Origin: Antedon mediterranea
Taxonomy: Eukaryota > Animalia > Echinodermata
Length of the DNA: 64,000 nt
Direction of reading: 5' to 3'
Assembly: GCF_964355755.1 (NCBI RefSeq)
Contig: NC_092680.1
Span: 12,276,001-12,340,000, forward strand
The first letter of the stretch is position 1. Every line of letters begins with the position of its first letter. The position numbers and the translations under genes are program-made. Below are positions 27,317-58,642 of the stretch, one piece after another. Under the pieces are notes generated by a model. The model did not search any database. It was not told the DNA's origin and saw only the letters and a list, made by a program, of their open reading frames with translations.

Positions 27317-27498
27317 AGCGAGAGAGAGATAGATCAGCCAGAAAGAGATAGATCAGCGAGAGAGAGAGAGATAGATCAGCGAGAGAGAGATAGATCAGCG
27401 AGAAAGAAAAAGATCAGCGAGAGAGAGAGATAGATCAGCGACAGAGAGATAGATCAGCGAGAGAGAGATAGATCAGCGAGAGAGATATAGATCAGCGA
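1409..27498 (+). repeat. Satellite array, modal 19-bp unit GATCAGC(GA)5TA, purine-rich on the + strand
   Basis: Continuous tandem units over ~26 kb. GA run length varies (17/19/21/23-bp units), and point variants recur (GATTAGC, CAGTG, CAGCAA, GGTCAGCGACAG). Confidence 0.99.
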
Positions 27499-27650
27499 TC
27501 TATCTCTCTCTCGCCGATCTCTCTCTCTCTCTCTCTCTCCCCCGCTGATCTATCTCTCTCGCTGATCTCTCTCTCTCTCTCTCTCGCTGATCTATCTCTC
27601 TCTCGCTGATCTATCTCTCTCGCTGATCTATCTCTCTCTCGCTGATCTAT
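27497..27650 (-). repeat. ~150-bp block of the same satellite in inverted orientation
   Basis: The + strand switches to TCTCTCGCTGATCTAT units at the junction ATAGATC-AGC-GATCTAT and runs directly into the (AAT)n LINE tail. Confidence 0.97.
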
Positions 27651-28919
27651 AATAATAATAATAATAACAGGGTTTTTATAGCGCACATACCACTCAAGAG
27701 TGCTCAAGGCGCATTCAAAAAAAAAATTAAAACAAATCATACAAATGCCTGACAAATAAAATGCAATTTCTTTGGAGGGTCCCCATCCGTTCTTGTTCTG
27801 TCGCGGTCTCGGACCCCTACCTAGATGACCAAACAAAGGAACAGGATACACATTTGCCTTGCCACAGACGACCGGGTGCTCAGAGACAACAACCAAGATA
27901 AGATAATGCTGGTCAGGAAAAAGTATACTATAAAATTCTAGAACTTTAAGAAACCTCATGATTTCCATATGCCTTAATGAATAAATGTGTTTTTAATAAT
28001 TTTTTAAAAGTATCAAAAGATTTTGCAAAATCTGATAGAGCTTGGTATTGCATTCCATAGACGAGGAGCAATAACGGTGAAAGCTCTGTCTCCCCATGAG
28101 TGGTGAGACTTAGGTTGATGTAGAAGCAGCGTATCACTAGAACGCAGATCCCGTCTGGGAACATACAGCCTAAGCATGTCAGAAATATATTCAGGAGCCA
28201 TGCCATTAATAGACTTAAAAACATAGAGTAATAATTTAAAAACAATGCGGTACCTAACAGGAAGCCAATGCAAATTTTCCAAGGTATTAGATATGTGTGC
28301 ATATCTTGGTAGTTTTTAACAACTCGTGCCGCTGTATTTTGAATCAGCTGAAGCCTGTGGAGTTGTTTTTGTGGGAGACCAAATAACAAGGAGTTACACA
28401 TATCGAGACGCGAACTAACAAATGCATGTACAAGTTGCTCAGCAGCTGCACGATTTAAGTATTTTCTGATGCCTTGAATATTTCTTAAATGATATGACGA
28501 TGCAGACGTAATTTTAGAAATTATGAGCCGTCATTGTCATATTAGAATCCAGAATTACACCAAGATTTGTAACTTGTGTAGTATTTTTAGTACAAAAGTT
28601 ACCAATGGAAACCCTCTTAGATGGAATTTTCTCTAATTGTTGTTGCGAACCAAATAGAATGCACTCAGTCTTATCATCATTAAGTTTCAAAAAGTTTTTG
28701 GCCATCCAGACACGAATTTCCGAGATACATTTTTCAAGCAAATCAATTGATAATTCACCCTTTGTCATGGTAGGTTTAAACGATATATATATCTGAGTGT
28801 CATCAGCGTAAACATGATAACTAAGATTATATTTCTTAATGATATCACGAATAGGATATACATAAATTGTAAACAATTGTGGACCTAACGGAACAGAGTA
28901 ATTTAAAGTGGTAGGTTGA
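27650..28919 (-). mobile_element. L2/CR1-group non-LTR retrotransposon, 3' part (degenerate RT C-terminus, 3'UTR, (TTA)n tail)
   Basis: Motifs LGPQLF, YHVYADDTQIY, LKLNDDKTE, NLGVILDS, LQLIQNTAAR, LHWLPV, GDRAF, LWN and LLKTHLF lie in shifted frames. The 3' end reads GCGCCTTGAG...GCGCTATAAAAA then (TTA)n, typical of L2 elements. The GVPQGSVLGP motif is partly deleted. Confidence 0.93.
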
Positions 28920-29495
28920 AACACGATTTTGTGCCATAACGGATTTCTACAATCCGCATTATTTATAGAATTTTCCTAAAAAAAAGCTATCATTAGAATT
29001 AAAAATATTATTTGAAAAAACAGATGTGGTTGTAAGATTTGTTTAATTATTGAGAAACATACAGTTTGATAATGTCAGCCATAATGTACATTATGGTAAA
29101 TATTTTAGAGATAGAAAAAGATCAATAAAATAGATCGACAATATGCAAATCCTTGTTTATTCTATAAATTTATAATTCGCTATCATTTTTATAATTATAG
29201 AAAAAAACATACTAGCTTTTTTAGGTTAAAATATACTGTCCGTTTTCCAAAACAACAATAGACATTACACAATGAGTTTTGTTCGGATTATGAGCTTCTT
29301 ATTTAAACTAGGTTTAATGTGCAGAAACTGCTTTATTTAATAAAAAAATAAATGGTATGGGCCAAAAAAATCTTTATAATGTCCATTTTTTTCGCGAAGT
29401 ACACACAAAGCAAAGAAAACAAATTTTAATAACTGCAGAATATTTTTAATTTTTAATCATTCATTGTTTTAATACAACTTTACTATAAAGTTCAT

Positions 29496-30105
29496 CTACA
29501 TGGTCATAAACATTATGACTACAGTATGGTTGAGCTATTGTTATAAAAACTACATGGTCATAAACTTGACTACAGTATATGGTTGAGCTACTGTTATAAA
29601 AACTACACGGTCATAAACTTTATGACTACAGTATATGGTTGAGCTATTGTTATATAAACTACATGGTCATAAACATTATGACTACAGTATATGGTTGAGC
29701 TATTGTTATATAAACTACATGGTCATAAACTTTATGACTACAGTATATGGTTGAGCTATTGTTATATAAACTACATGGTCATAAACTTTATGACTACAGT
29801 ATATGATTGAGCTATTGTTATACAAACTACATGGTCATAAACATTATGACTACAGTATATGGTTGAGCTATTGTTATATAAACTACATGGTCATAAACTT
29901 TATGACTACATTATATGGTTGAGCTATTGTTATATAAACTACATGGTCATAAACTTTATGACTACAGTATATTGTTGAGCTACTGTTATACATACAAACT
30001 AGATGGTCATAAACTTTATGACTACAGTATATGGTTGAGCTATTGTTATATAAACTACATGGTCATAAACTTGACTACAGTATATGGTTGAGCTACTGTT
30101 ATATA
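29496..30105. repeat. Left subterminal tandem array, 11 units of ~56 bp containing the palindrome GTCATAAnnnTTATGAC
   Basis: GTCATAA starts at 29503, 29557, 29610, 29666, 29722, 29778, 29834, 29890, 29946, 30006 and 30062. Two copies have a shortened right arm. Confidence 0.97.
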
Positions 30106-30217
30106 CAATTATGAAATTGGTTGAAAATTAAATAATTTTTTTAGATTCATTATACATGTAAAATTCCATTAATGTGCACCCTATTGTGACAACCAGTGAG
30201 TTGTAAAACTCCCTGCA

Positions 30218-30547
30218 TTAACTTTCATTTAAAAAGTCATCTCTTAATTCTTTTAATTTAACAATAACATTGGTAGGCAATCTACTAGTTGGTGTTAAAT
30301 TAAATATACTTATCACCTCCTCCTTCGATATTATTTCTCGCCATTCTTGTCCATCTTTTTCACACAGAACAAACCGGGAAGTATACGTTCCAGTGTACCA
30401 CACTACTTCTACCTCATTGTTATTTATGCTGAATATTTTGCCTATCTGAGGCCATTCTGTGGGATATCTCCTTAAAGCTGTTGCTACCATAGCACCAACA
30501 TCGAGTTGCTGTGGTGGCTTACGCTTCGAAAATTTACCAATGTGTAC
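30218..30547 (-). CDS. Transposase last exon, possible SH3/Tudor-like beta domain
   Basis: Encodes VHIGKFSKRKPPQQLDVGAMVATAL...WPQIGKIFSINNNEVEVVWYTG... ending in TAA at 30218-30220. The fold assignment is inference. Confidence 0.75.
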   Translation of the reverse strand, partial: VHIGKFSKRKPPQQLDVGAMVATALRRYPTEWPQIGKIFSINNNEVEVVWYTGTYTSRFVLCEKDGQEWREIISKEEVISIFNLTPTSRLPTNVIVKLKELRDDFLNES

Positions 30548-33500
30548 CTAGTAGTGTGGGAGAAAGCATAGAAAAGTCATAATCATTTTTCTTACAACCC
30601 TAAAAATATAGAATTTTCGTTGATGCATTTGCTTGATGCGATTATGAGATCATATCCCAAATATAAGCACTGCTTTAAACTATGTTGCATTACATGTTTC
30701 AAAGATGTAATTTTGAAAATCTATAATATCTTTATCATACCGGTCTTATTTCATTTTCATTATCCGAGTCACTAATGTCTGTCTCGTTTCCATCAGATTC
30801 CTCCCTCATAGGGCTTGCATTGTTGTCATTAAAAATGATGTCATGGAGCAAAAATCGCTGTTCATTTCCTAAAAAAAAAGAGTACGTATTAGTTTTAAAA
30901 AGTAAATAATATACATTCATACAAAATATCATGATATATTTATGCTGAGGTGTTTGTTGCATAAAAGCTGGGCCAATACATTGCGCACCATGCTAATCAG
31001 ATGCTGATTGATTGATTTTATCTTATGAATTAATCAGGAGGCATGTTTCTCCAGTGTACTCCACTAGATATCGTTCATGTTATTTGATAATTTTAGGTTC
31101 TCACATAAAATGATCAGTGGAAGCATGCATTGGTGAATGTGACCCAACATAGTTGTGTGGAGTAAATAGTTGAATTTTGGTATAGCTGCTGAATCTATAC
31201 TAAAATCAAAATTCTCTTGTTAACCAAAAAATATATGTGTAAAATGGTGAAACATCACACATGCAATGTAGTACAGTACATACCTTCTGTGATCTCTTCT
31301 ATATTATTTAAAAATTCCTCCCACCAGTCACGTTCTTCTATTCGCAAAAAATTTGCAACAGACGCCAGACTTTTTTTTAACTTTGGTATATCTGCATTAC
31401 TAAAATCAGGAGTACACAACACTGGTATATCAGCAGGGCTTTCCTTGAGCAAATATGGAAGTGTGTCCATTTCTCTTGCACATTCATACCAAGTACAATC
31501 CGTTGACCAGTTCTTGTAGGACATGATGCATTTTCCGGTTTGAGCCAAAACAAACTTAAACTGGTGTGGTTTGCTGTGGTAACGTATGTCTTGCATGTAT
31601 GGTACTAACCAGTTCTTAATGTCATGCAGATAGGAAATGATACTTGATGTAATCGGCAACTTTTTGTACGAGTTTTCAACAGCACTTCGAAGATGATCAA
31701 GTGTAGATGCTCTATATTTGTTCAGGTATTTGGCCACACATGAAAATAATTGGTCAATATCCTCGTGAGTGTGACCCACCATTAAAAACCCAATCTTTAT
31801 CTGAAAGAGTAAAAGAAGTAATGATTTAAAATTAAAACTTTTCAAAGCAAAATAAAAAAAATACATTTTTAGTATATTTCCATTTTTTCCTCATCTAGTT
31901 AGACTAGAATGTTATTGAATATTTTATGTCTTAATAGATAATTACCAATAGTAAATTAATTAATGTCCTATTAGGCTGGTGGAAATCACCCAACACAGGG
32001 GATATTTTGTGGTGAACGAGAACAGGGTAAATGAATGATGAACTGGGTTCTTTAAAGTGCACTGTGTATACTGTTTTATTATTTATATATCATTTATAAA
32101 TGTATAGTCATTTACCTTTCGAAAAATCTTTAACTCTACAAGAAGAGCACATAGGGCAAAAACAAATCTGTTTTTATTATCCTTTCCGCTATTGTCCAAC
32201 TGCAGATATAAGACTGGTGGTAGAGGTTGTATCTCTGACAGCACCGTCAGTATAATGTTGCAGGTTAGGTTTGAGTCATGTGGAAACTGCTTTAGGTCAA
32301 TGAAGCAGTGCCCATGTCGCCCATGTACCAGAACACCAGTTACATGTGTGGCTAGTTTCCACATCTTCGACGTTTCTTTTGATTCGCAAGCAAAAGATGG
32401 TAAATCAGTCTTGCTTTGGTCCATTCCATCGATAATTATTGACAAATACTTGTTGGGATTCTGTCTTGCTTTCTGCATATGTTTATAGTACTTTCGACGT
32501 TCAATACTGAAAAATTAAAATCATATGTTTATAGTTTTATTTTGCATTTAATAATAAATTTTTGTTTTGTTTAGTTATATGTTATCTATTAGCCGATGAC
32601 AAGATGAGACAATGCTTTACTTCTAATCTATTAAAATTATTGATTAAATGTAGAGGTTTTTTGTATAATAATGATTTTGTTTATCTTTTCTCTTTTTTTG
32701 TTTACAACCACTTTTATTCATTCATTGTTCATACACAATAATTATTTTCATTTTCTACCATTTTTCCCCGTTATTTTCTGTTTTATTTCAATCACTGTTA
32801 ATTTTATTAAGTTAGAATTATTTTTAAAAACACTAATAATACTATAGAGGAGGTATACAGTGGAAGCAATAATTATTTTTCCTATCTATGGTAATACCGG
32901 GTATACAAGTTCAACAGAATTTCTTGTTGAAAGGTTTAAACTACTGGATTTGTACACAAAATAGGTAGGCATACTTACTTTTGTTTTCGTAAATGCTTCT
33001 CTCTCTTCATCATTAGTATTTGCCGTTTTTGCTTTTGATTTGTCTTGTGCAGCTCAAATTTAATTCTGGTGCATTTGCTGCATTTTGCAAAACGATTTTC
33101 CTATTAAAAAAAATTGAAAAAATACAGCACGTAAAAATATAAAATTAAACAAATTTTGCATTCAATATAGTGAATGTAGGGAAGGAGTTGTGAGGCCCAT
33201 CATACATGCATCTGGATTGTACAGTATGTTTTTCCAGTATTTTATTATGAATGAAAATTGAACCTACAGGACTTTCTGCATAACATTGAAAATACGTTAA
33301 AAAATACTTCAGTCAATGAAGATGACATGGATTTTGTCCATTGGTACAAACCATAATAAGTGTAAAAACGTAAACATACCTCAGGTATTACAATATGCTT
33401 GAATTCAACACACCAAAACTTGTAGAATGTCGCTAATGCACACACATCTTCATTTCTTAGCTCAAACTCATCTTTCATATGCATGTACACATCATGTTTG

Positions 33501-35255
33501 GTAAGCGTTGATGGTAGATGGATTTGTCCATTAGTTGGCATTTGATCACCGTATTCATTACAAAATTTAATAAACCAAGCCCGACACTGTTGAGTTGAAT
33601 TGCTATATACCATCTTTCTGGTGAAGTTGGGTGGTAAAAGATAACAGCATCCTTCTAAAAAGAAATAAAATGTAAATTTCAAATATTAGGAATTTCAAAT
33701 ACTGTACTATTTTATTATTGTTTGGTTTAATCCATTGATTAATGACTTATGATCATTTTGCATTATCTTTCTAACATAGTGTTAAGCATATTAATTTTAT
33801 TGTGTAAAAATAATTAAACAATAATCAAATGCATTCTATTCATTTAAAAAAAAGTTATTCTCCACTCCTCATCAGATCCTGCCTATGTCCCTGTATAATA
33901 CGACTATAAGTATAATGGAAAGTAATCTTCACACAGTGACAGTAATCTTTCCGTTTCAGCAACATTAAAACACATACATTAAAAGTAATATTAACAGCAT
34001 GTAAAATTAAATAATGTAAAATGTACTGTAAAACTAAACAATTAATTACCAATAGCTTGCTTCCTTATTTTGTAAAAAGTTGACCGGCCAATACCATTTA
34101 CTAACATCCATGCTTTTGCACAAACTTTGTTAGCACCAACTAGTAGACAGATTTTGGTGGCACCTCCGGATGTGCTGAGATGTTCATTGAAATATTTTAA
34201 GAATCCAACAGCGTTGTTCATATTCGGTCATTGCTTGAAAAGCTTCCCTTGTTTGTTTTATTTCTCTAAAATTTAGCATACCAATGCACATTAATGCACA
34301 ACAGCAGGTCAAATACAAGTTGTGTATTGGCTGTAGGTGATTCCTTTTCCTTTTTTCTACAGAAAGAATAAACTTACATTATCCATTGGCAAAAAAAACA
34401 AACAAACAAAATAACAATTATATGGTACCAATTGCGGAAAATGTGATCAGTCAATACGGTTTCAGAAGTTTTGGAGGTTACGTAAAACTAGGTGACTAAT
34501 TCGCATTAATATATAGATACTTTTAATTCTTTGACAAACAATTTTTTTTTCGGTTCAGATAATTCAATTTCAATTTTCGAGTGTTCAATTACAGGTTGTG
34601 CAGGTGCCTTGTTCATTAGACAGTCGTACCTATTTACATACCATACAGACATAACATTAGAACCTGACCATAGAATCAGACACAAATGGAAACAACCAGC
34701 AATGTCCATATCTTTTAGGTACAGCACAACCATCAACATCAAGCACTATTTAATAAAGTAGTTTTAAAAATTAATGACATATCAAACTTACCACTACGCT
34801 TACTTGTGTGATTAGAGATTTTAATCTCATCATCACTTGATCCAGATGAATTAAGGTAATTAGTTTCTACAGTCTCTAGGCCTCCTGTATTTCTCTTGCA
34901 GGCTAAATAAAAATATAGTAGTTTAATATTTATAGCAGCCTATGCAACATACATGTACAGTAATTCTTCATTTGGGGTAACTGGTGATTGATAGCAGACA
35001 TTTTCAAATTTTGGATAGTGGAAGATAATATTTTGATCCAGGAGCTATAGGCTTTATGGGAGGTTATTACCATTTATCCTTTTTTTTTCACCATTATTCT
35101 CATCGTTATTAATAATGAGGTTTTTGTTGTATTTTGTTATTTCTGAAGAATGCACCTTTGTAATTATTAAGTATGCTAATGATTTAAAGGTGTAGTAGGG
35201 AAGTAAATCTAAATAAATAAACTAGCCTCTATAGAGGATACTAATATCTACTGGC

Positions 35256-35290
<35 letters not shown>

Positions 35291-37258
35291 TTATTAGGCT
35301 GGCTGCTTAAAAGGTAATTCCCTATCCAACCAAGCCTAGATGAAGTTTTGTATAAAGTTGGTAGGAGCCCTACTAAGAAAGGTTAGCAAAAGCTCATGGT
35401 TAATGTTATTGCTACTGACCTGCTGATATGTCATCATCGGAAGTATCGACATCGGAAGTATCGACATCTGTTGTAGAAACCTCCCATGCTTTTCTCTCTG
35501 CTGCTGGAGGAACTTTGGTAGTTGTTACTAGACAAACAGAGTCTATGTTGTAATCAGAAAATGTGCAATTTAAACTATTATCATAGAAATAATTAGATAC
35601 ATTTATTGTTTAAAAGGGACTGCTAATTTCAATTTTTTATTTTATGATTCCAGATCAATTATTTATTTTACATATCAAAATAATTTCTTTTTTTTCCAGT
35701 AAAAAAACCCTGCCAAGGGGACATTATTTTGTTCCTGAAGCCTTAATAGGGGTTATACTGAACGTAACTAGAGGTGGTCCAGTGAAATAGAAAACGTTAA
35801 CAATGCAAACTTTTTTGTTAAGAACAATCTCAACGCACACAATTGTGTTATAAGTACGGAAAGGTAAATCAACACAAAAAAAACTATACTCAACGATAAA
35901 TGTCCCAATCGAATACGACATTGCTACCTCCCAGATCGGGCCCATAAAAACATAGGGATAGGCCTAGAGGCGGCCTCTACTCTAACCTAGTAAATAACTA
36001 CATAACATGTCATTGTATTGTTAAAGTTACTGACCTGCTGACTCTGTCGGTATGTCATCATCAGAAGTATCGACATCTGTTGTAGAAACCTCCCATGCTT
36101 TTCTCTTTGCTGCTGGAGGAACTTCGGTAGTCGAAATCCCAGTAGGTGACCCTTCTGTATCATCAACAGCAGAACATCCATTATTGATTGATTGAATTGA
36201 ACCGTTCCCACGTACAATTAGGCCTACTTCATCATCTTCACTTGAAGAATAGTAAAGCATACGCTCAGTTGGATAAGCAGTGCTGTGTGTTGTTGTTACT
36301 TGACAAACAGATACTGTATCGTAATCAGAAAATTTGCAATTTGATTAAATTATTATCATACATAATTAATTAGATATTAAATCAAGAATGATTCCACCGA
36401 AATTTTGAGTTAAAATAACGATAGTGAAGCATATGAATAGGCAAACTGCCTAAAAATTGACATGTTTTGAGAAACTATTCTCATCTTCCACCAGAACAGA
36501 AAACAACGCCTAGGCTTAAGATTACTTATATACCAATAGGACAGGTTGTATGTAAATGAGGAAGTAATTAGCATGATAAAACAACAAGGAATGTAGGCAA
36601 AAAACAATCATATGGCAAGCGTGACGCCTATTCATCAAATGCCTCACTATCGTTATTTTAAATAATTAATTATATGCCACACATGGTAAAATATTATTGA
36701 AAATGTGTATGTTTGATCATGGGACACCCTTTCCCACAAACAAGTGGATATAGGCCTATTAAGGGGGCCGGCACACATTTTGAGTGTACCTGGATGGTTG
36801 ATTACCCCTATATTAAGTTTTTTCTATCCCAAACACAGTACAGTACTACATACTAAAATTTCCATAGGAATAGGCCTAGGCTAGAGCCTATCTCTAGCTA
36901 GGCTTAGTAATAAGTAATATTTACTAGGCCCAGGCCTAGTACTAGTAGTAGTAAATAACTAGGCCTCTAGCTAGGCCTAGGCCTACCTAGGTATGAACAT
37001 TCATTGTTGTAGGCTAGGCCTATTGTATTGTTACTCACCTGCTGCTGCTGACTCTGTCTGTATGTCATCATCAGAAGTATCGAAATCTGTTGAAGAAACC
37101 TCCCATGCTTTTCTCTTTGCTGCTGGAAGAACTTCGGTAGTCGGAAGAACTTCGGTAGTCGAAATCCCAGTAGGCGACCCTTCTGTATCATCTACTCCTA
37201 GGACTAGGCCTATGCCTAGGCCTTCTTCATCGTCTTCACTTGAAGAATAGTATAGCAT
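30218..37258 (-). CDS. Spliced Sola1/DUF7869-like DDD transposase, 11 exons, ~933 aa, with one +1 frameshift (pseudogene or sequence error)
   Basis: GT-AG exons: 37258-37039, 36313-36035, 35542-35420, 34902-34792, 34356-34050 (307 nt, one extra base in the T4 run at 34195-34198), 33654-33380, 33100-32979, 32506-32116, 31800-31284, 30868-30741, 30547-30218. All are phase-compatible apart from that base. Motifs: CCC...C, VCAKAW...GI, GDQMP...IHLP, FAKCSKC...H, IIIDGMDQ, LQLDNSGKDNKN, FLMVGHTHEDIDQLFS. The start and first four exons are less certain than the core. Confidence 0.82.
31284..31800 (-). CDS. Transposase exon with the third catalytic motif
   Basis: Encodes IKIGFLMVGHTHEDIDQLFSCVAKYL...PHQFKF..., bounded by ctttcag and gtatgt. 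Confidence 0.88.
32116..32506 (-). CDS. Transposase catalytic exon (first two candidate catalytic Asp residues)
   Basis: Encodes IERRKYYKHMQKARQNPNKYLSIIIDGMDQSKTDLP...LYLQLDNSGKDNKNRFVF...KIFRK, bounded by tttttcag and gtaaat. Confidence 0.88.
33380..33654 (-). CDS. Transposase exon (GDxMP...LP region)
   Basis: Encodes CRAWFIKFCNEYGDQMPTNGQIHLPSTLTKHDVY...TFYKFWCVEF with canonical splice sites. Confidence 0.82.
35256..35290. repeat. (TAG)n microsatellite in a transposase intron
   Basis: About 11 tandem TAG units. Confidence 0.85.
36865..37022. repeat. TAGGCCTA/CTAG-rich low-complexity intron patch
   Basis: Dense cluster of TAGGCCTA, CTAG and TAGTA words. Confidence 0.7.
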
Positions 37259-37444
37259 ACGCTCAGCAGTTGGAACAGGGTGTTCTGTCGTGCCATCATC
37301 AGAAAATGATGATCGTCTTCGCTTGAGTATTGAAGCATTAGCTCAGAGTCGCTTATCATGTTCATGATATAACAAATTGATAAAAGAAATGAACAATATA
37401 CGGTTTTATGTTCATTTAACCGTCATTCGCATCTAATCTTTGGA

Positions 37445-37520
37445 AAAAGCGCGAACGAATTTGATTGGCTGCTGCAGCTGATCAACGTTATATTTCATGT
37501 GACGTCGTCAACGTCCAATG
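37445..37520 (-). promoter_or_regulatory. Putative transposase promoter elements (CCAAT box, CRE-like TGACGTC)
   Basis: GATTGG at ~37463, TGACGTCG at ~37500 and CCAAT at ~37515, in a locally CpG-rich patch ~200-260 bp upstream of the first coding exon. Confidence 0.4.
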
Positions 37521-39549
37521 CAATTACAATACTGTACTTTATTCATTTTAAAACAAACCGAAATTGTCCACTTTTCCATTACTGAATGTATCCAAACATG
37601 GATGTATTTATACAAATTGTTTTTCTGGCTGTTTTACTTTATCGTTTTGATTTAGCTTTTCGCTTTTTTTTGTATCTCTATTGAGATCCAGCCACTGATA
37701 CCCACATCATTGTCGTTGTTTCATTAATTTTCCTTTGGATTGATATAAATTAAAACATAAATTAAATAAGTTGTATATGTTTTCTCCTTATTGTGAATAA
37801 CGTTTGAATGTATTTTTTCTTGTTATTTGTAAGAGGCTATAGGCCTATAACTTGATTCGGCTGTTGAGAAAAAAAAACATATAATAATAATACATGAAAT
37901 GTAAAATAAAACATGATATGATTTAACTGTTGACGGTAAAAAACATGTTAGGGCCTATAGGCTATATAAACATAGTGTAAAATACGATATAATTTACAGA
38001 CACATAGGCTAACCATAGCAGCAGTTTTTTGTTTGTTTTTATCAAACACAGTGAAATACAAAACAATTGGCACAATGACACGAACAATAGAAGCCTCAAC
38101 AAGCCTGGCACACCCAACCCAACATATTGACTAACACCCCTATAAATAATAATGGAATAGTCCTATATTCAAATACATGCCGAAAACTCGGGTTGATCCC
38201 TGATTTAACCTAAAGCCATAGAAATGTAAACTAAAATATGCGTAGTGCATGAATATAGAGTAACAGTAACATTTCTAGTTTTTAATCTTTCTCAGTTTAC
38301 TTTTAATAATGCTTTGTTTTTTTACGTTTTGTTTTATATTTGAAGATATCAAATTTGTCAGTGGTTTGTCATGACAAATTATACTTTTTAAATATTTTTT
38401 TTAATGGTTTTTATGTATATATTTTTTTAAATATAATTATGTTTATTTACTCTTGTTGCACATCTCCCTCATTGAGACTGTGCCTCTGATAAAGAGATAC
38501 AAAAAAATTCATAACATAATTAACTGTACGCCACATTAAATCTTAAAAAAAAAGTTTATATAAACTTTAGATTCTATCATCAAAACACTTCCCCTATTAT
38601 GATCAAATCATCTTTCATGTAAACTTGGCCTATTTTTCAGAAATGAATATCCTTATAGTAATACGATGAGTGGTAAGTTCAGAGCTTGGGATTTTTTTAG
38701 GAAACAATGAGTTTGAAAGAATCCCAATTTGATTGGTCAAAATTATCGCTACTTATACGTCCGCTATAGATGGCGCTTTTTTTCATACAGATAACTACAT
38801 AAACAGAACACAATTGTTAAAGAATAATTAATAATATTAAAGAACCAATTCTTTTAATTATTCCTTGTATAAAAATTGTCCCCATGTATGGCAAGATATT
38901 CCTAATTTTATCGTATATCATCTTTAATTGTCTGTACACACGAACCATGTTATCTGTATATTTAAATGATTGTTCACACAATTTATTATATCTTATGTAG
39001 GCCTATTTTTATTGTTTTACTAAGTTTTATGATTGAAATGCAGTATAGATAACCAATTCGATAGTGCTTAGCACTCAAGAAAGGAAATTCCCACGTTGCT
39101 TTGTTGCGTTGTTTGACTGCATGAAAATTTAATAAAATAATTCTGTTCGATCCTTTTCCTTCATCTATAGGCCTATGGCTTGTGTTTTTGTAATTTCTGT
39201 GTGCATGCTATACATGTTGGCTTCGTCTATGAATTTGTTACCGATTGGCTATTTCCTTTGATTGTTAATGCGTTGGTGGTTGGTTACAATCAGGCCTGCA
39301 TATTATTTTTCAAAATTATAACATTTTAAATTTTGTTGTAAATTGATGCTTTCAATAATGATTGTAGATCATTTTCACTATTTCCAATGAGAATTATATC
39401 GTCGGCCAAGAATGAGTCTTTTTATCAATAAAAAATATTAATCTCTTTCTCTTTGAAATCTTTTGTAAGTTCATTTATATATAATATTAACAGAATTAGA
39501 GAGAGAGAGAGACAGCCTTTGTGGGTTGAAAAAAATGGATAATTTTCAA

Positions 39550-40010
39550 TATAAATCCAAATTACTGAAAAAAAGACAATGCTGTGGGTATCAGTGTGGC
39601 TGTGGGTATCAGCGGCTTGATCTTAATAAAGATACAAAATAATATAAACAAAAAGCTAAATCTAAACGATACAATTTAAACAACTAGACAAAATTAGCAG
39701 AGCTTTCGGGCAAAACTAGCCCTTCATCAGTGTGTAGAAATCAAGCGCTGCCTGAGTGGACTGGAATAAAAGAAATAAAACAAAAGAGGCATAATGCTGG
39801 TGAAAAGAGTGAGATTAGAAAACAATAAAGATAGCTTGGTATATATAAACAATTTAGAAATTGAATTAAAAATCAACTCAAATGGTGGTTAATATTGAAA
39901 CATTAAATTTAGGTAGTCGATGGAATAATTTTACCGATCTGGGAATATGTTCCTAATGTTAAGTCAAAATATTTCGTGGTTTTAAGTAGTAATTCCAAGT
40001 GGTTTTCATG
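39550..40010 (-). mobile_element. Probable Penelope-like terminal-repeat remnant
   Basis: Surrounds the hammerhead motif. Homologous inverted copies occur at ~37620-37750 and ~45235-45520, the latter repeated in the tandem units. No PLE coding sequence was recognised. Confidence 0.45.
39698..39734 (-). ncRNA. Minimal type I hammerhead ribozyme motif (Penelope-type), probably degenerate
   Basis: Minus strand reads CTGATGA-A-GGGC-TAGTTTT-GCCC-GAAA-GC-TC: core boxes, 4-bp helix II and palindromic AGCT helix III. Helix I has only ~2 bp. Confidence 0.7.
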
Positions 40011-40639
40011 GTCTGCCCTGTCGTGAAAGAACGTCTCAATTGACACATTTTAAAAAAGCTTTTTGGGCAATTTAGGGAATGATACACCTTGTGGTGCATT
40101 CGGATTTTCAATTACTTGCAATTATTGTTCATTCCGGATGATAACAAAAACACGTTTGGTTGATTATCTGAAAATTATGCAGTATGCAGTTGAGAGGTTA
40201 TTTCATGACGGGGCAGAAATGTAGGCTAATAATAATTTGTTTTGCACAATGCATGGTTAATATTAAACATCTTTTTTATGCGATTCTTCCTTATTACTTT
40301 CATTTAAACGAAACACAATTAAGTCACCTATGTGCGCTCACTTTGCTTTTTCACTTTGCAATGTTATCGATAACTTTAAACGAAGGGAGCCAACCGAAGC
40401 GCACCCGTATCATTTGGACGCAATCATAATGGGTTTTTGGACCGATGTCTTATTAACGTTCCCTTTTGTAATGAAAATTATGTATAAAGGGTTTTTTTTC
40501 GGACCGACATAAAAGTAATTCGAGATTCATGACATTTTTCGTTCTTTAATTTTTAAATGCCAAGGAGAACTAAAATTAGCAAAAGTATAGTCACGCGAGG
40601 GTTTATGAGTGCTATAGGATGCAAGTACAGCACGTTAGT

Positions 40640-45219: not shown

Positions 45220-48200
45220 AAGACAAAAAAACACTTGGAATTACTACTTAAAGCCACAAAACTGTTTGATCTTAACATTAACATACTCCCAGATCAGTAA
45301 AATTATTCCATCGACTACCTAAGTTTAAGGTTCAATATTAACCACCATTTGAGTTGCTTTTTTTTAGATGCAATCCTAATTGTTTATATCTACCAAGCTA
45401 TCTTCATTGTTTTCAGCTTGTGCCTTGATCCTTTGTTTTTATTTCTTTATTCCAGTCCACTCAGGCAGTGCTTGTTTGCTTCATATTCTCAATTTTGTTC
45501 TTTCACTTATAAAGGGCTAGTGGATTTATATTTAAATGTTTTTTTAATTTTCTGTTTTTTAACTCACATAATGTCTAAAAGATCGCAATAATAATGAAGC
45601 TTTTGAAATGGATGTAAAATATTCATATTCTCAATTTTGTAAAAGCACTTCCACTGATATAGTATATTATCCTATTAATTAAATATGACAAGTTGTACAG
45701 GTAGTTTCAGTTTTTATTTTCTATTGTTTTTGTATATTTTTTTTTTTAAGTAATTGTGTTGCTTAAATGATGGAGGTATAAACATATTTTGATATGCTTA
45801 AATGTTGTATGTGTGCCACTGTTAAATATGTGTTGCTCCAAATAAATATTATTATATTATTATTACAAGGTACAGTATTCATTTCTGAAAATTATATACA
45901 TAAAAGATGATTTGATCATACAGGAAATTGTTTGAAGATAGAATTTAAAGTTTAGATTTAACTTGTTTTAAAGATTTAATGTGGCTATACTTTGATATAT
46001 TATAAACGAATTTAACAAAACTCTTTGAAATTTATAATTCTATTGAGCCTATATGCGTGGTACGGTCACTGTTACTCTTTATTCATTGATTTAAAATTCA
46101 GGTTAGACTTTTAATTAGAAAGAAATAAACACACCAGGGTTAAAAGGGTTAAATGATCCATAATTAAGCGATATATCTACACTGTGAGACACAAAATGCT
46201 TTCATAAAATTACACATTTATACCTTTGCTTAATAATAATATTTTATAATAATTCATTTTAACGGCACTACGCCTACATGATGATCATGGGTAGCTAATG
46301 GCATGGGGCTCCGACCCTGTATGCCACTTTTGGAAGTGTTTATATTGATGTTGCAAACAATTTCATTATCAAAATTTATATGTAGAAGACAAAACTGATT
46401 AATTAGTGTGCATGATGCATATAAGAAGTAATTACTGAAAACTATCATTGTAGTACATTTTTTATAGTATTAGTAGTACTTTATAGTATAAAGGGTGTAT
46501 AAAGTTGTGCCTTTTTCAAGCATGATTTGAGTGATAGTTGTTTTTGGGGTTGGCAATTATTGCGACAAAATTGTAATGTCCTTGACGTTATTAATGCCTA
46601 ATTTCCGTGACAGAGATAAACCCTTATATCAATAACATATCATTGGGGTTTTTTTTTATCTAATGTGATATAAAGGGATAATCGCAGAAACAGCACAGAA
46701 CTCCGAATTCCTAAAAATGCTCTAAACATTAGTCCCAATCATAGTCGAGCTGACGTGGGTTTGGACTTCCAAATATACACAACCTTGAATTACCACTAAA
46801 TTTCAAAAACGTTGCGCCGGTTCTGAATATTATATCTAATCTGAATGATATAGGCCTAAATGAATAATACTGATACTTGCAGAAACCGCAAAGAACGTTC
46901 AATGTATTGCATTCAAAAGACATGTCACATTCGTGTAATATCTTATATCAATGACACGAACATATTAGGTTGTCAAAAGACAAAAAAAACTTGGAATTAC
47001 TACTTAAAGCCACAAAACTGTTTGATCTTAACATTAACATACTCCCAGATCAGTAAAATTATTCCATCGACTACCTAAGTTTAAGGTTCAATATTAACCA
47101 CCACTTGAGTTGCTTTTTTTTAGATGCAATCCTAATTGTTTATATCTACCAAGCTATCTTCATTGTTTTCAGCTTGTGCCTTGATCCTTTGTTTTTATTT
47201 CTTTATTCCAGTCCACTCAGGCAGTGCTTGTTTGCTTCATATTCTCAATTTTGTTCTTTCACTTATAAAGGGCTAGTGGATTTATATTTAAATGTTTTTT
47301 TAATTTTCTGTTTTTTAACTCACATAATGTCTAAAAGATCGCAATAATAATGAAGCTTTTGAAATGGATGTAAAATATTCATATTCTCAATTTTGTAAAA
47401 GCACTTCCACTGATATAGTATATTATCCTATTAATTAAATATGACAAGTTGTACAGGTAGTTTCAGTTTTTATTTTCTATTGTTTTTGTATATTTTTTTT
47501 TAAAGTAATTGTGTTGCTTAAATGATGGAGGTATAAACATATTTTGATATGCTTAAATGTTGTATGTGTGCCACTGTTAAATAATGTGTTGCTCCAAATA
47601 AATATTATTATATTATTATTACAAGGTACAGTATTCATTTCTGAAAATTATATACATAAAAGATGATTTGATCATACAGGAAATTGTTTGAAGATAGAAT
47701 TTAAAGTTTAGATTTAACTTGTTTTAAAGATTTAATGTGGCTATACTTTGATATATTATAAACGAATTTAACAAAACTCTTTGAAATTTATAATTCTATT
47801 GAGCCTATATGCGTGGTACGGTCACTGTTACTCTTTATTCATTGATTTAAAATTCAGGTTAGACTTTTAATTAGAAAGAAATAAACACACCAGGGTTAAA
47901 AGGGTTAAATGATCCATAATTAAGCGATATATCTACACTGTGAGACACAAAATGCTTTCATAAAATTACACATTTATACCTTTGCTTAATAATAATATTT
48001 TATAATAATTCATTTTAACGGCACTACGCCTACATGATGATCATGGGTAGCTAATGGCATGGGGCTCCGACCCTGTATGCCACTTTTGGAAGTGTTTATA
48101 TTGATGTTGCAAACAATTTCATTATCAAAATTTATATGTAGAAGACAAAACTGATTAATTAGTGTGCATGATGCATATAAGAAGTAATTACTGAAAACTA

Positions 48201-49174
48201 TCATTGTAGTACATTTTTTATAGTATTAGTAGTACTTTATAGTATAAAGGGTGTATAAAGTTGTGCCTTTTTCAAGCATGATTTGAGTGATAGTTGTTTT
48301 TGGGGTTGGCAATTATTGCGACAAAATTGTAATGTCCTTGACGTTATTAATGCCTAATTTCCGTGACAGAGATAAACCCTTATATCAATAACATATCATT
48401 GGGGTTTTTTTTTATCTAATGTGATATAAAGGGATAATCGCAGAAACAGCACAGAACTCCGAATTCCTAAAAATGCTCTAAACATTAGTCCCAATCATAG
48501 TCGAGCTGACGTGGGTTTGGACTTCCAAATATACACAACCTTGAATTACCACTAAATTTCAAAAACGTTGCGCCGGTTCTGAATATTATATCTAATCTGA
48601 ATGATATAGGCCTAAATGAATAATACTGATACTTGCAGAAACCGCAAAGAACGTTCAATGTATTGCATTCAAAAGACATGTCACATTCGTGTAATATCTT
48701 ATATCAATGACACGAACATATTAGGTTGTCAAAAGACAAAAAAAACTTGGAATTACTACTTAAAGCCACAAAACTGTTTGATCTTAACATTAACATACTC
48801 CCAGATCAGTAAAATTATTCCATCGACTACCTAAGTTTAAGGTTCAATATTAACCACCATTTGAGTTGCTTTTTTTTAGATGCAATCCTAATTGTTTATA
48901 TCTACCAAGCTATCTTCATTGTTTTCAGCTTGTGCCTTGATCCTTTGTTTTTATTTCTTTATTCCAGTCCACTCAGGCAGTGCTTGTTTGCTTCATATTC
49001 TCAATTTTGTTCTTTCACTTATAAAGGGCTAGTGGATTTATATTTAAATGTTTTTTTAATTTTCTGTTTTTTAACTCACATAATGTCTAAAAGATCGCAA
49101 TAATAATGAAGCTTTTGAAATGGATGTAAAATATTCATATTCTCAATTTTGTAAAAGCACTTCCACTGATATAG
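45220..49174 (+). repeat. Near-identical tandem duplication, 1756-bp unit, ~2.25 copies
   Basis: Identical short ORFs recur at 45349/47105/48861, 46254/48010 and 46860/48616, all offset by 1756. Only a few single-base differences were seen. Confidence 0.97.
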
Positions 49175-50754
49175 GGCTAGTGTTGCCCATATATTATCCT
49201 AATTAAATACGATTTAATGTGGCTTTACTTTTATATATTATAATAATATTTTATAATTATTCATTTTAACGGCACTTTGATAAAACAATGTTATATATCA
49301 TACTATTGCACCTTTATTCATGGGGTGACCTACTATAACCTTACACTATTATGGAAGAAAAGAAAAAAAAACAAATAAGAATTGTGAAAGTTAACCCAAT
49401 GTATCACAGGTGTGACTTGGGTACATAATTGAAAAATTCATTATATAATAATATCATGTGCATGCAAAAACAAAATTGTATTATTAAATGTGCATATCAT
49501 TTATTTGTCCAATATAATTTTATATATTAGTTTAATTTATTTTTCTAACGCCTAGTTTGACAGGCCAACTTTGAAATTGAAATAATCTTTTCGTTCGACA
49601 CAATATTTCAGAGATACGTGAACATTTGATGATGGTCTATCCGATATGACTTTGTTTTTTTGTACATAAAAAGTGGACAATTTTGGTTTAGATCAATGAA
49701 TGCTTAAAATTGTTTTTTTTTTTGTGCTATATTTTTCAAGTTGATATCTGGAATACTATCAACGCTTTTATCTTATAATACGCGATATATTCATATTTTT
49801 TTACAAGAAAATAAAGTATTGATCACTAGCTTGTTTTTATGTATTTAATAACTATTCTAAGTTCATTTTAAATAGGCGTATGTTTATATTTTAATGATTC
49901 ATGGTAAACAATTATAAACAGCTTCAATATTACACAGTAGGTTATTCAAAAGAGACGCACAATTTATACGGACGTGTTTTTAACGACAAAATTGACCAAT
50001 CAAAATGGAAATAGTCAAAATACAATAATTTTATGTTCATTGGCTACCCCACCAACAACCTAAACTTCAAATAATAAAACATCTCTGTAATACTGTATTT
50101 AAAAAAAAGCATATTTGCAACCGAAATTTCTTATTTTATAAATATAATATAAATTTACAATTATACAAAACAATATACAACTGCTTATAAAAAAGGAATT
50201 TAATTAAAGAATTTTAATTTAGTTAAAATATCAGGATTTCTTACTTCAATTTGATGTTTCCTTTAGAGGCGCTAAACTTTTGAATATATGATTTATTTAT
50301 TTTTTGGTCATATGTTTTTTATATCATGTTATTATGTTATGTGCAAATAAAGTATTTACATAGTTGATATATATATATATATATATTATGCAGTGTAGCA
50401 TAGGTGAAATTACGGGAGGCCAATATGAATTAGTTTGAAATGGTAAAAATTATTTTACTACAGTATAAGTAGATTAAAATATATAAGTTAATCTATGAAA
50501 ATGATTATATATTACTGGCAGATTTTATCGATCTCTATCGTGCAAATAATACTCGTTATCGATATGAAATACGATTTGCACTTGAGTTTTTCTTCCTGCT
50601 GATCTGTAGCTTTAGTATAAACAATGTGAACAATGCCCAAACAGGGAGTTGACTAATAACTCCCTGGCCCAAATAAAAGATCGTAACAGTGTGAAAGTGC
50701 GTCACTCATCGCCCAACATTGTTTGTGATCACTTCGTTATCGCATTTGATAAAA

Positions 50755-53507
50755 ATGGACTGGAGGTTTTGTGTAGAGGAAGACAACATTGCTTATCTAA
50801 TAATTAATAACACTAGGGCAATAAAGCATTCTGATGGTGAACAGTTAGGCAAGGTTATAAAATTTACCAAAACAACTAAAGGCAAAAACTGGCTTAAGGT
50901 AAGATTGTTGTGTTCTTCTAAATAATATAATTTTCTTTTAATGTTTTTAGGGAACCATTCTTCACCAGTCTTATTACTTTATAAAGATGTTTTATTTTCC
51001 ATTTTGCAGTTTTAAAAAGTGTTTCAAGCCACGCAATTATTAGTTTTATTAGTATTTTCCCAGGGGCACAATCTTCAGCTGTTTAATAGGCCTATTATAT
51101 TTGGATTTTATAGGCTTTCTGATTATAATATATATTATGATTTATTCGATTATTTATTTCATCTAATTAATTGAAATGTTGTTTCAGGCCTAAAACTAAA
51201 TTGTAATATATCTTTACTATAGGACCATTGATACTAATTTTGTTGACCATTTTTTTAACATTAAAGTTTTATATATGATTTAAAAAATGCATTTTCATCA
51301 AGAGCACCAACACTGAATATTAGGGTGTAGTGTGTACACTTAACAACTATATAAATTTCTATGTTTAGTTATTTATTTAATTAAAAACAAATTTGCAATA
51401 CTATAGATTGTTACAGAAGAAAGCGACTGTAGTAGTACGCTTGCTGCAACCAAAGTATTGTGGAGCAAATTCAAACCGGACGAAAATTGCCCATTTTGCA
51501 AATGCAAGACAATTGACAACCTTACCAAAACATTGCAAACATTACGAAAGCGAAAAGCTCAAGATGCTGAAAACGTAACTACAAAGAGAACAAGAATTAA
51601 CATAAAGACAATCGACGAAACAATCAAAGAAAAGATCATTGGTTAGTATATGAAACATTTGTTATTGAAGTTAAATACTGTACCATGCCCCATGGACAAG
51701 CATAATTATTATCTGCTTTTGTTTTACTGTAGTTTACAATTAAACAAACGTTACTGTTTTATATTTTTTCCAATGTTTTGTTGAATATGTCACATAATAG
51801 TTATTCACTTTGATCTTGGATAACAAAAACTGTAATTTTAAACATAACTCACAATAACTATAGGCCTAACCATGATTAGATTTAATGTATCTACAATTCG
51901 TTACGTTAAATTAGTATAATCTGGCTAGATAAGTAATTATACGTACTAGGCCTATTAAAATATAAAGCGGATGAACACATTTTTCGAAGATGAACGAACT
52001 AAAGATATTTTGAACACAGGTTTTAACTTCTTATAGTTACTCTATTTTCTATTTGTTTTATTGTTATTTAAGTTTCAAACAGTTATTATAAAACGCATAA
52101 ATATTTTTTTTAAAAGACAACGATAGAGTCATGCAAGTACAGTATTGGTACTGCGAAGAACAAGGTATACCCAGTTTGTTATTGTATTTACAAATATAGT
52201 TCAGTCATTTTTATTCAATTATAAATATAGGTCAATCATTGATTGGCAGTCTACTAAAAAATTTACCAATTTGCAATACTAACTGCTTTTTGGTATGAGG
52301 TGGATGGTGGGGTAATGGGGTTATTTCTTCTTGTGTCTAATAAAAGAAAAAAAAAAGAAATGTACCATTGATATTATTATTATTATATTCAAATATACAG
52401 GAAAGTTAATGTAAGTATGTAGGCCTACAGTTTAATGATGATTCATATTTTTTTTAGACACCATTCGCACGTTATTAGTAAGCCCTCAACACGAACGCAT
52501 GATGAATGGAATTGGTGGCGTCATTAAGGCTAAGTCACTAGAACTGCTAATTAAGCAACTAGTGACAAGGCATAGCAGAGAAGGTCACTTAGTTGTAAAT
52601 TGCCTAGGATGGAATGGTAAATAATACATTTATACCATAACTCATAATAATCATTCATTGATGTTAACCAAAAACATACCGCGTGACAATTGGGCATGTC
52701 GCTAAAATCCAATCAAATGGGAAAAATTCTTGTTCTTTGAGTCATTACTATTGTCGTTTGTACAAACGACATTAATGAACTAACAAAATAATTTAATATT
52801 CAATTGAAATCTATTTTATTGTTATTATAATTACAGTGTTCAAGGAAATAATTTTGCAACGGCGCAATTGTATAACCTTGCTCGAGAATGATGGGGAATC
52901 TGAATTAAGATCCAGATTAGTTCGTTTCAAAGAAGAAATTGAAAACAGCATTCAGCTTGAAAATGGAGCCCAATCGGATGGTAAGTTTAAGTTAAATTAA
53001 CTTTATTGTTTATCTATTGTCATGGATGCTAATACGAAGAACAATATACAAGCGATATTGTATACATTCAAGTCGCAATACAATGCTGATGATTTGATGT
53101 TTGTAGTGCAATATACTGCTACTTTTTGTTCAGGAATTTTAAAACGGCATATTAAGCTGTATTCTCATAACTTGGACGGCATATTATGCTACAGTATCTG
53201 TATTGTAAACTTGTATAAACACAGCCCATGCATTTAATTTTTAATCAATATTCAAAATACCCATAATCAATTTCTGACCCAATTTGAAACATATAGTAAT
53301 ACAAATTTAAAAAAAAACAAGATTCTCTATTTTAAAATTTTGTTTACACAGAGCTTCTAAAAAAATGATACAACTATTTAGAGGTCTATTAAATAATAGG
53401 GCCTTGGTTTATTCATCATTTCAGATGAGGACGACAGTACAGATGAGGAGGTTGAAGATAATGCGGAGATGGCAAATGAGGAGGACGACTACACATTTCC
53501 GGGGTGA
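50755..53507 (+). CDS. Intact 5-exon gene, 254 aa, unknown function (transposon accessory or cargo protein)
   Basis: Exons 50755-50898, 51407-51641, 52458-52616, 52837-52980 and 53425-53507 are all GT-AG, phase-compatible and total 765 nt with no internal stop. Protein: MDWRFCVEEDNIAYLII...NCPFCKCK...RKRK...KRTR...DEDDSTDEEVED...YTFPG. Confidence 0.75.
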
Positions 53508-53654
53508 AAATAGCATTCATGATACTGGACACATGCCTTGCAGTCACATTTTATATAACTTTTCAAATTAATTTATTAAATTTATTCTGTGCCTTGTGAT
53601 GTTTATATATATACTGTATATACAATTGAGAGACTAGTACTGTTCCGCCGTACT

Positions 53655-53820
53655 ACGACAGTGGTCTAATGGTCATCTGCATATCAAGCAGAATGTTCCG
53701 GGTTCGGATCTTGGATTGGGCATTCTCACTGATTTCCTCATCTTTATCGTTTAAAATTAAATAATTAAATTTCACTGGGCGGTTTAGAATTATTCTGTGC
53801 CTGTGAAATGTATATATCTT
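53655..53820 (+). mobile_element. Degenerate tRNA-derived SINE
   Basis: A-box-like TGGTCTAATGG (~53661) and B-box-like GGTTCGGATC (53701). The tail TTATTCTGTGCCTGTGA is also present at ~53582. No full cloverleaf. Confidence 0.5.
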
Positions 53821-54085
53821 TTAAATATTTTCTACTACAATCACGTATAAATAGTTAGTAATGCATACAATACTTATTTTACTAGAAGCCGAGTTTAATT
53901 CTTTCTAAATTAATAACCAGTGTTAGTGAATAAATAGTTAAAATTTATCAGTTCTTTAATTCTTTGATGTAAGGCTGAGAAAAAACATGAGTGTATTCAT
54001 GTTTTGTCATTAATAAAAAGCTTGTATAGCACACTAAAACTTTGTCTACTAATTATTTTTACAGAGAAATTCTTGTATTTCTGAA

Positions 54086-54468
54086 GTCATAAATTTTATG
54101 ACCTAATGGCAGCTTCACAATCATGTCATAAATATTATGACTTATGTGAAAACAGTCAATACCTTGAAGCCCGGAAATCACAGCCTCATGTACTATAACC
54201 AGCGTATTCCGAGACATAACATGTAGTTTTAAATTGTCATAAATTTTATGACCTAATGACTGCTAAATTAATGTCATAAATATTATGACTTATGTGAAAA
54301 TAGTCAATACTGTACCAGGAAGCCCCGAAATTAGTGCTTCCTGTACTATACACTATAACTAGCGTATTCCGAGACTTAACATGTACCTTTAAATTGTCAT
54401 AAATGTTATGACCTAATGACTGCTAAATTAATGTCATAAATATTATGACTTATGTGAAAATAGTCAAT
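54086..54468. repeat. Right subterminal tandem array, ~2.5 units of 150-160 bp with six copies of GTCATAAnnnTTATGAC
   Basis: Palindromes start at 54086, 54125, 54236, 54273, 54396 and 54433, forming three pairs. Confidence 0.95.
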
Positions 54469-55230
54469 AGGCAGCTACCATGTCGATCGAATAATACACG
54501 CTGTTATCTGCTGTATATAGCCCATCACTTTATAACTTTTTTGTTGAATCTAATATATTATTACCGAGTATAAGGTGGTTAGGAGCTAATAATACTAAGC
54601 TTTAGAGCTGAGTGGAAATGGGCCGCTACTACTAGTAATTACACCAAAGTGTTTTGTGTATGATAATCGAAGTGCAGCTAGCTCTGCCAACAAATGCATG
54701 GATTAATACATTCATTTATAAAAATAGTTTTTAACACTCAGCTAGCTTTTATCTCATTATCATAAATGAAAACAAAAAAGAATTGCCTTTTTCAACTACA
54801 AATAAAAACATATCATCCAAACTAATAAACAGAAAAAAGAAACAATTATTCAATCAATATTATAGTTTATCGTTAAAGTAAGTTGATATATTTATGTTTC
54901 ATTATACATTGTATTAAACTAGTTAATGTCGATGTATACATTTATATAAAACAAGGTTTTGTTTATTAATTTCTCAGCGTTACTAAAATCAAAATATAAA
55001 ACAAAACAAATTATACGGCAAGTTTATGCAAATAAAAATAATTATAAGAGGAAATGTTTGTTATCGCTAAATTGTAGTATTTTGATAATATTGAAATCGA
55101 TAAAAATCAAAATATGCATATTTTACGATTTTGTATACATTTTAGCTATGAATGGCCAAAATTAAAGTAAAGGTCGATTTTGTTGAATCTACACAGACGT
55201 ATAATGTTTGTACTGAAAATAAAACGTGTT

Positions 55231-55478
55231 TTGAGAGATTTCCTCTCTAATACAAATGTGTTGAGGTCTGTCCTCCAAGTATGATTGACACCATCTTAGT
55301 GCACATCCCTGAACACCAATAGAAGCTTGCAACCTCTCAGTCAGAATACTATGATATACCGTATCAAACGCAGCACTCAAATCAGGTAAAATTAAAGCAG
55401 TTACTTTTTCAACATCCATCGCACGAAGTATATCATTGCTAACGCGCAGGAGTGCAGTTTCAGTACTGTGATGTGATT
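55231..55478 (-). mobile_element. 5'-truncated upstream part of the same L2-type LINE RT
   Basis: Translates HHSTETALLRVSNDILRAMD...DLSAAFDTV.H...LRWCQSYLEDRPQHICIREEISQ. It joins in frame to PTTLNY at 28915 once 28920-55230 and one TTGA are removed. Confidence 0.93.

Positions 55479-58605: not shown

Positions 58606-58642
<37 letters not shown>

Follow-up and report, generated by a model that had tools for sequence, protein, structure and literature searches.

In the feather star Antedon mediterranea (GCF_964355755.1), a stretch of 64,000 nucleotides from contig NC_092680.1 (positions 12,276,001 to 12,340,000; hereafter the window, with coordinates counted from its first letter) carries a long interspersed nuclear element (LINE) whose reverse transcriptase (RT) lies in two pieces separated by 26 kb. 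This raises the question of what the intervening block is and how it could have moved with so little repeat sequence at its ends. The block is a real, discrete and multicopy DNA transposon, with a transposase matching Pfam DUF7869 and a second gene on the opposite strand. We consider it probable that it is a recently spread giant transposon of the Sola1 type, whose divergent gene encodes a ParB-like protein with a degenerate methylase half, the predicted binder of arrays of a 17-bp palindrome found near both ends.

Insertion site and ends of the element

The insertion is defined by the following features (TSD, target-site duplication; TIR, terminal inverted repeat):

27650..28919, minus strand: host LINE, 3' part, with the RT end and a short triplet tail (RVT_1 match)
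28916..28919, plus strand: left TSD, TTGA (sequence inspection)
28920..55230: whole transposon copy, 26,311 bp (junction reading and public assembly contigs)
28920..28929, plus strand: left TIR, starting with AAC, matching the right TIR at 9 of 10 bases (contig start at 28920)
55221..55230, minus strand: right TIR, ending in GTT (contig end at 55230)
55231..55234, plus strand: right TSD, TTGA (sequence inspection; single TTGA in the empty site of run X1)
55231..55480, minus strand: host LINE, 5'-truncated part (RVT_1 match)

The first-pass annotation had claimed that the LINE halves rejoin in frame across exactly these ends, and this holds: both halves match RVT_1 and, once 28920-55230 and one TTGA are excised, the minus-strand RT frame crosses the junction without a break and reaches the YADD motif. 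The duplicated stretch measures exactly 4 bp, the likeness of the flanks going no further. The annotated imperfect TIR of about 10 bp was also recovered, with 9 of 10 terminal bases matched and background levels beyond, and no end-to-end TIR match was found in a self-search of the element. For one fixed pair of positions, such a TIR together with a 4-bp duplication is expected by chance at about 6e-7.

Public contigs of runs X1, X2, X5 and X6 were compared with the window on both sides of the element interior at 38200-50400. In X1, one contig starts precisely at 28920 and another, with all of its 268 letters placed, stops precisely at 55230, as expected where copies with different flanks branch. 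An X5 contig has 83 non-matching letters ahead of 28918. The empty LINE site is present in a contig of X1, with 11 left-flank bases immediately before a single right TTGA. The transposase cluster includes 9 A. mediterranea members, 98-100% identical and located on at least 7 distinct contigs, which indicates a young and dispersed family.

The transposase gene

The transposase is encoded on the minus strand, in the left part of the element:

30218..33654, minus strand: transposase gene, open part, with the DUF7869 RNase H core and a C-terminal PWWP/BAH/SH3-like barrel (exons 33380-33654, 32979-33100, 32116-32506, 31284-31800, 30741-30868 and 30218-30547)
34050..34355, minus strand: exon with the conserved N-terminal domain and a frameshift near 34195
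34793..37365, minus strand: upstream acidic, internally repeated exons, tentative model (approximate exons 37039-37365, 36033-36320, 35421-35542 and 34793-34902)

The reading is open only from 33613 onward, in six exons encoding 573 amino acids, 571 of them the same as in A. mediterranea XP_071958009 (99.7%). Two window exons match Pfam DUF7869 (PF25273) with 124.8 and 114.4 bits, and the transposase protein P0065 does so with 241 bits, against a cut-off of 26. The suggestion that a DUF7869-type protein belongs to a defined mobile unit is supported by a profile score above the cut-off together with exact ends and a 4-bp TSD, and DUF7869 gains such a unit. The gene is also present in a second organism (coded B) with about 96-99% identity. 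Further relatives occur in molluscs, cnidarians, a sponge, amphioxus and a hemichordate (62 matches from 178 candidates), and the DUF7869 clusters of the Atlas take in Streptophyta and Oomycota.

A fold model of P0065 (predicted local distance difference test, pLDDT, 81.6) has its best fold matches in TnsB, foamy-virus integrase, Mos1 and Sleeping Beauty (Foldseek E 1e-3 to 1e-2), with no Foldseek match at E of 0.001 or below (top E 1.2e-3). In VIA, P0065 aligns with the Metnase transposase domain with Z 8.0 and a root-mean-square deviation of 3.3 over 167 residues; the Z of about 8 for residues 152-370 was graded middling, and nearly all of the top rows are DDE enzymes. D216 and D294 are present in 46 of 46 alignment rows, and D335 in 42, the other 4 rows being gapped. 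In the model, D216 and D294 stand at strand ends and D335/D337 at the start of the helix that follows, the candidates for the third catalytic acid being D335, D337 and E334. By this model the DUF7869 protein is a transposase of RNase H-like fold, in which acidic residues occupy the integrase positions. At its C-terminus, residues 545-631 form a barrel that aligns with the PWWP/BAH/SH3 type (Z 7.0-7.6); this barrel was likened to the PWWP and BAH histone readers and could steer target choice.

The first-pass annotation had described a spliced DDD transposase, which stands as regards the RNase H fold and the invariant D216 and D294, while the copy itself is damaged, with two upstream frameshifts. 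Homology to Mytilus proteins changes frame near 34195. Since P0065 has the same frame relation and no cluster member exceeds 645 residues, this lesion may be common to other copies. The second is a 31-nt deletion at 37309-37311, where the window has 3 letters against 34 in runs X1, X2 and X5, a difference that agrees with the frame offset in transposase exon 1. Three of the upstream exons (35400-37270) are copies of one acidic, serine-rich exon, with 74-92% DNA identity.

Structure and damage of the second gene

Gene 2 is encoded on the plus strand, in the right part of the element:

50522..50899, plus strand: 5' coding region, structure uncertain, two candidate frames
51407..51641, plus strand: exon, 54% identical to residues 47-114 of Anneissia XP_033095348
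52104..52107: putative deletion of the ParB-like middle (contig ends in X1, X5 and X6, and missing homology)
52117..53507, plus strand: 3' exons 52117-52164, 52458-52616, 52837-52980 and 53425-53507 (GT..AG joints in X5), resembling the degenerate C-terminal half of an N6/N4 DNA methylase with an acidic tail

Both genes are spliced and divergent, pointing outward from the centre of the element as first described. Three GT..AG joints in X5, presumably an RNA run, fix the 3' exons. The exon at 51407-51641 matches Anneissia japonica XP_033095348 with an E of 4e-11 in a full HMMER search. Over its residues 195-276, the same protein has 71% identity with the N-terminus of XP_071951838, in which the 96 C-terminal residues of gene 2 are identical. 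The Anneissia protein therefore connects this window exon with the N-terminal part of XP_071951838. As XP_071951838 lies on the same contig as the transposase XP_071951826, gene 2 travels with the transposon family. The HMMER search with exon 51407-51640 gave 3 matches in all, among which P0087 and P0088 are repetitive and were rejected as chance; a word-index search with the same exon retained none of 53 candidates.

A claim that did not survive is that of a second intact gene. About 160 residues lying between two exons in the Anneissia homolog are missing from the window, and at 52104-52107 contigs of X1, X5 and X6 all continue with non-matching letters; from these two observations we infer a deletion there. 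The present copy is therefore damaged in both genes. Upstream, a 32-nt hairpin (50635-50666) is absent from X6, and a different upstream frame of gene 2 is open with and without it. This hairpin (25 bp) lies between 7-bp direct repeats and has CAGGG..CCCTG ends, resembling hAT-type termini; it looks like a tiny hAT-type remnant or the site of a slippage deletion. Over 50400-51554, coverage in X1 is nearly nil, and X5 and X6 are covered, with no bridging contig.

Probable identity of the second gene from other DUF7869 families

In a metagenome scan, 80 of 201 confirmed transposase stretches were kept (loci given as L numbers). L077 is an intron-rich contig whose transposase is placed among animal sequences in the tree. 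Copy comparison gives its element a length of about 15.3 kb, a start with AAC, a TIR of about 33 bp and a divergent gene on the minus strand; the element in L075 ends in GTT. In L010 and L012, an intron-poor transposase lies head-to-head with a gene, which in L010 has an N6_N4_Mtase domain (E 2e-9) and a weak DUF6551 match (E 0.035). The Anneissia protein is similar to the divergent genes of both L077 (z 7.8) and L010 (z 6.4), scores reached by 0 of 300 shuffles each, against z of 2.1 or less for four unrelated partner ORFs (open reading frames) used as controls. The L077 and L010 genes compared with each other give z 3.0 (2 of 300 shuffles). By these alignments, gene 2 is linked, through its Anneissia homolog, to the divergent genes of two other DUF7869 families.

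We suggest that gene 2 likely encodes a DNA-binding protein of ParB-like type, its methylase half being degenerate. The region common to the Anneissia protein and the L010 gene has what we take to be the layout of ParB/Srx domains. The ParB label rests on these motifs and on the description of a gene in Ectocarpus, the ParB alignment not being significant. For the other half, the window 3' exons align nearly gapless to the S-adenosylmethionine (SAM)-binding end of the L010 methylase (0 of 1000 shuffles, with boundaries picked by eye), and the glycine motif for SAM binding is eroded in the window.

Several results weigh against this picture. Against 29 bacterial ParB domains, the alignment is collinear over 92 columns with an E of 0.19, and a mismatched control reached 0.027; scores with ParB hidden Markov models (HMMs) were equalled by 14-24 of 300 shuffles, and no ParB match was found in Pfam, PHROGs, NCBIfam or PDB sequence searches. 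Local alignment of gene 2 of the window with the methylase gives z -0.2, and a bacterial methylase HMM placed it against the wrong region. In global alignment, the L077 and L010 genes are not significantly similar (177 of 1000 shuffles). Seven other loci have unrelated partner ORFs, so the pairing of DUF7869 with a gene of this type is not universal, and the three families with the accessory gene are not grouped in the transposase tree. As for the ends, the flanks of the L077 element differ (TTTT and TATA), and among the contigs compared none showed another filled site with its two flanks, which leaves the TSD known from one insertion.

The transposase tree (39 rows, 211 columns) places the animal sequences in an open fork (87/90), with the placement of L010 unresolved. 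A single-sequence model of the accessory protein P0085 has a pLDDT of 41, and its Atlas search gave weak DUF6532 leads with low feature counts, which were discarded. The viral loci L081 and L082, which matched P0086 by one 8-residue word in an unrelated phage protein, were also rejected. A well-supported clade of intronless DUF7869 transposases (L005, L006, L008, L029, L032 and L043) has a different divergent partner ORF, on the minus strand upstream of the transposase, with 460-510 residues and a coiled coil and without a convincing Pfam family; L011 carries yet another. In an automatic scan of 10 long loci for AAC/GTT ends with a matching TSD, three candidates were obtained, none at the boundaries given by copy comparison. 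Copies of the L077 family hold multi-kb tandem arrays of varying length (6000-11300 in L064; about 12700-16300 in L063, L075 and L077).

Palindrome arrays

Two subterminal arrays share one palindrome:

29496..30108: left 56-bp tandem array, 9 copies of GTCATAA-N3-TTATGAC
54086..54469: right repeats of about 160 bp, 6 copies of GTCATAA-N3-TTATGAC

The window contains 15 copies of this palindrome against 0.02 expected, located 0.6-1.1 kb inside each end of the element. The longest match common to the two arrays is 23 bp. In the L077 family the palindrome is GCAGGAA-N3-TTCCTGC, with 20, 10 and 13 copies in L077, L075 and L063, respectively, and in L077 its arrays flank the genes on both sides. 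In the L010 family it is CCGATGC-N3-GCATCGG, with 4 exact copies in L013, 6 in L022 and one between the genes in L010; in this family its positions are upstream of the transposase and between both genes. Each of the three families with the accessory gene has its own 7-N3-7 palindrome. At least 3 copies of such a palindrome were found in 5 of 80 transposase loci and in 0 of 66 bacterial and phage loci, a contrast weakened by the shortness of most other contigs, which may stop before the element ends. The first-pass annotation mentions neither the arrays nor a likely identity for gene 2.

Proposed mechanism and alternatives

From the fold and the TSD, the element would move by cut-and-paste, the transposase cutting at the TIRs of about 10 bp and inserting with a 4-nt stagger. 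We predict that the accessory protein binds its family's palindrome as a dimer. Bound to the arrays, it could help define or pair ends lying 26 kb apart with little terminal information, or else regulate the genes of the element. Where the methylase is whole, it might also mark the element; in animals it would act by binding alone, since the SAM-binding motif is eroded. The present copy, being damaged, probably either owed its movement to a transposase acting in trans or decayed once it had inserted. Such a mechanism may explain how a 26-kb element moves in a diploid animal with 10-bp TIRs, and why TIR finders overlook elements of this kind. For the existing proposal that ParB-methylase proteins bind and mark the element carrying them, Sola elements had so far offered no candidate site; the three families, with different palindromes and identical 7-3-7 geometry, make it directly testable.

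A wider proposal, which we hold only tentatively, is that DUF7869 transposases with DGMDQ/GHTH motifs form a eukaryote-wide lineage that kept a ParB-methylase partner all the way from algae to animals. Each family would have its own 7-N3-7 parS-like address code for self-recognition, with self-methylation in some hosts, and the first example from animals would be the feather-star family, both young and transcribed.

As the main rival, the arrays could serve as subterminal sites bound by the transposase itself, with gene 2 a passenger carried along for a long time or a regulator that ignores them. Subterminal transposase binding sites exist in hAT and CACTA elements, and the position of the arrays 0.6-1.1 kb inside both ends here, the flanking of both genes in L077, the short TIR and the extra predicted binding modules of the transposase (an N-terminal helical part and the C-terminal barrel) would all suit this explanation. 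We nevertheless find it unlikely, since the palindrome of the L010 family lies upstream of the transposase and between the genes, and arrays were found only in families with a partner of the gene-2 type (the 5 of 80 loci, with the caveat that most other contigs are short and may miss the ends).

Alternatively, the element could belong to a separate, unnamed DDD lineage, its likeness to the giant Sola1-1_Ec32 of Ectocarpus resulting from gene capture or convergence. Its motifs are clearly unlike those of Sola2, its target is not AWWT, DUF7869 was named in no paper of our literature search, and accessory genes of a related kind have been reported from other types of algal transposon. Against this stand the features common with what is described of Sola1-1_Ec32 (AAC..GTT ends, a 4-bp TSD ending in A, more than 20 kb, nested insertions), the matching domain order in its opposite-strand gene, the listing of Sola1 from moss, and the presence of Streptophyta in DUF7869 clusters; we give a separate lineage little credit. 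Finally, an assembly artefact (a collapse or a chimera) or a segmental duplication, with coincidental TSD and TIR, to which the satellite-dominated window and the lack of any contig crossing the complete element among those compared could point, is extremely improbable and largely refuted by the exact LINE rejoining, the empty site in another run, the contigs stopping at both ends and the joint chance of about 6e-7.

Nested repeats and surroundings

Part of the 26-kb length is due to a LINE remnant, a triplication and several high-copy intron repeats:

40580..42660, plus strand: nested decayed second LINE fragment with RT remnants, itself interrupted, about 2.1 kb
45091..49174: 1,756-bp unit repeated about 2.3 times, 98% identical, about 4.1 kb

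Parts of the latter repeat are about 79% similar, in inverted orientation, to 38530-40316. On either side of the nested LINE, 38530-40316 and 44770-45985 show patchy inverted similarity of 77-80% and may be the long, degenerate arms of an old nested element. Depth spikes in all of the runs compared mark high-copy repeats in introns or behind gene 2 (31912-32262, 36124-36825, 37528-37878, 51720-51884 and 53535-53864). The window consists mostly of a 19-bp purine-rich satellite, broken at about 27650-55480 by the 5'-truncated minus-strand LINE. The satellite (1500-27500 and 55480-64000) encloses the LINE and the transposon and has a strong strand skew; beside the LINE 3' tail, a piece of it of about 150 bp (27497-27650) is inverted. 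Rfam and ARAGORN searches over 27400-55600 found nothing.

Comparison with known systems

The first-pass annotation had called the element Sola-like, and this holds in part. Classic insect Sola1 elements have AWWT/AWDT targets, 28-36-bp TIRs starting with GGACC and 2-3 kb, with no second gene mentioned in the passages available (PMC3845634), and bivalve Sola1 elements average 5.4 kb (PMC10294476). With the former, our element has in common the 4-bp TSD and a DDD-type transposase, with an RNase H fold and conserved D residues. Its target, TTGA/TCAA, fits neither AWWT nor AWDT (PMC3845634), which counts against a classic Sola1. Sola2 resembles it in the 4-bp TSD, the short TIRs of some families and a possible second gene (Fanzor) (PMC3627910), but membership was rejected, as the catalytic motifs differ at all three acidic positions in a visual comparison with the alignment of supplement S10 of that paper. 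We conclude that the element is most like the Sola1 group and likely of a giant Sola1 type with AAC..GTT ends, being set beside Sola1 by its features, not by its transposase sequence.

The closest system is Sola1-1_Ec32, as far as the available passages describe it (PMC12477816): 21,549 bp, AACCG-CGGTT termini, a 282-bp TIR, nested insertions, a 4-bp TSD with a bias towards A as its last base, and, on the opposite strand, a gene with ParB-like and N4/N6 methylase parts, tabulated as 'Ectocarpus specific'; among the giant families, the transposase is often pseudogenized. The Antedon element, with its own AAC..GTT termini and TSD ending in A, has a comparably giant size (26,311 bp), nested insertions, a damaged transposase and a second gene on the opposite strand. 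The methylase domain is clear in the homologous L010 gene, whereas in gene 2 of the window a degenerate C-terminal resemblance has mixed statistics. It differs in its TIR of about 10 bp, its animal host, its degenerate-looking methylase half, the loss of the ParB-like part in the present copy, and its palindrome arrays, none being described for Sola1-1_Ec32 in those passages of PMC12477816. The second precedent comes from Bostrychia, where Plavaka elements have ParB-like and adenine-methylase accessory genes (PAG2/PAG3) and tandem inverted-repeat arrays proposed as ParB binding sites, according to the parts consulted (10.1101/2025.02.11.637652). Inverted-repeat arrays beside a ParB-like accessory gene are thus common to both, but Plavaka has a transposase of another superfamily, ParB fused to a 2-oxoglutarate (2OG) oxygenase and the methylase in a separate gene (10.1101/2025.02.11.637652).

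The large, multicopy family with two divergent genes and minimal TIRs is therefore real, and its supposed novelty is lost: the two-gene ParB-methylase architecture was already published for Sola1-1_Ec32 (PMC12477816), and similar arrays for Plavaka of Bostrychia (10.1101/2025.02.11.637652). No animal example of such an element was found among the literature matches listed, a search that did not extend to Repbase and most subscription papers. Three things appear to be new here: the occurrence in an animal, by which an accessory gene previously described from algae is extended to animals; the link with DUF7869; and the family-specific 7-N3-7 palindrome arrays in all three families with the accessory gene.

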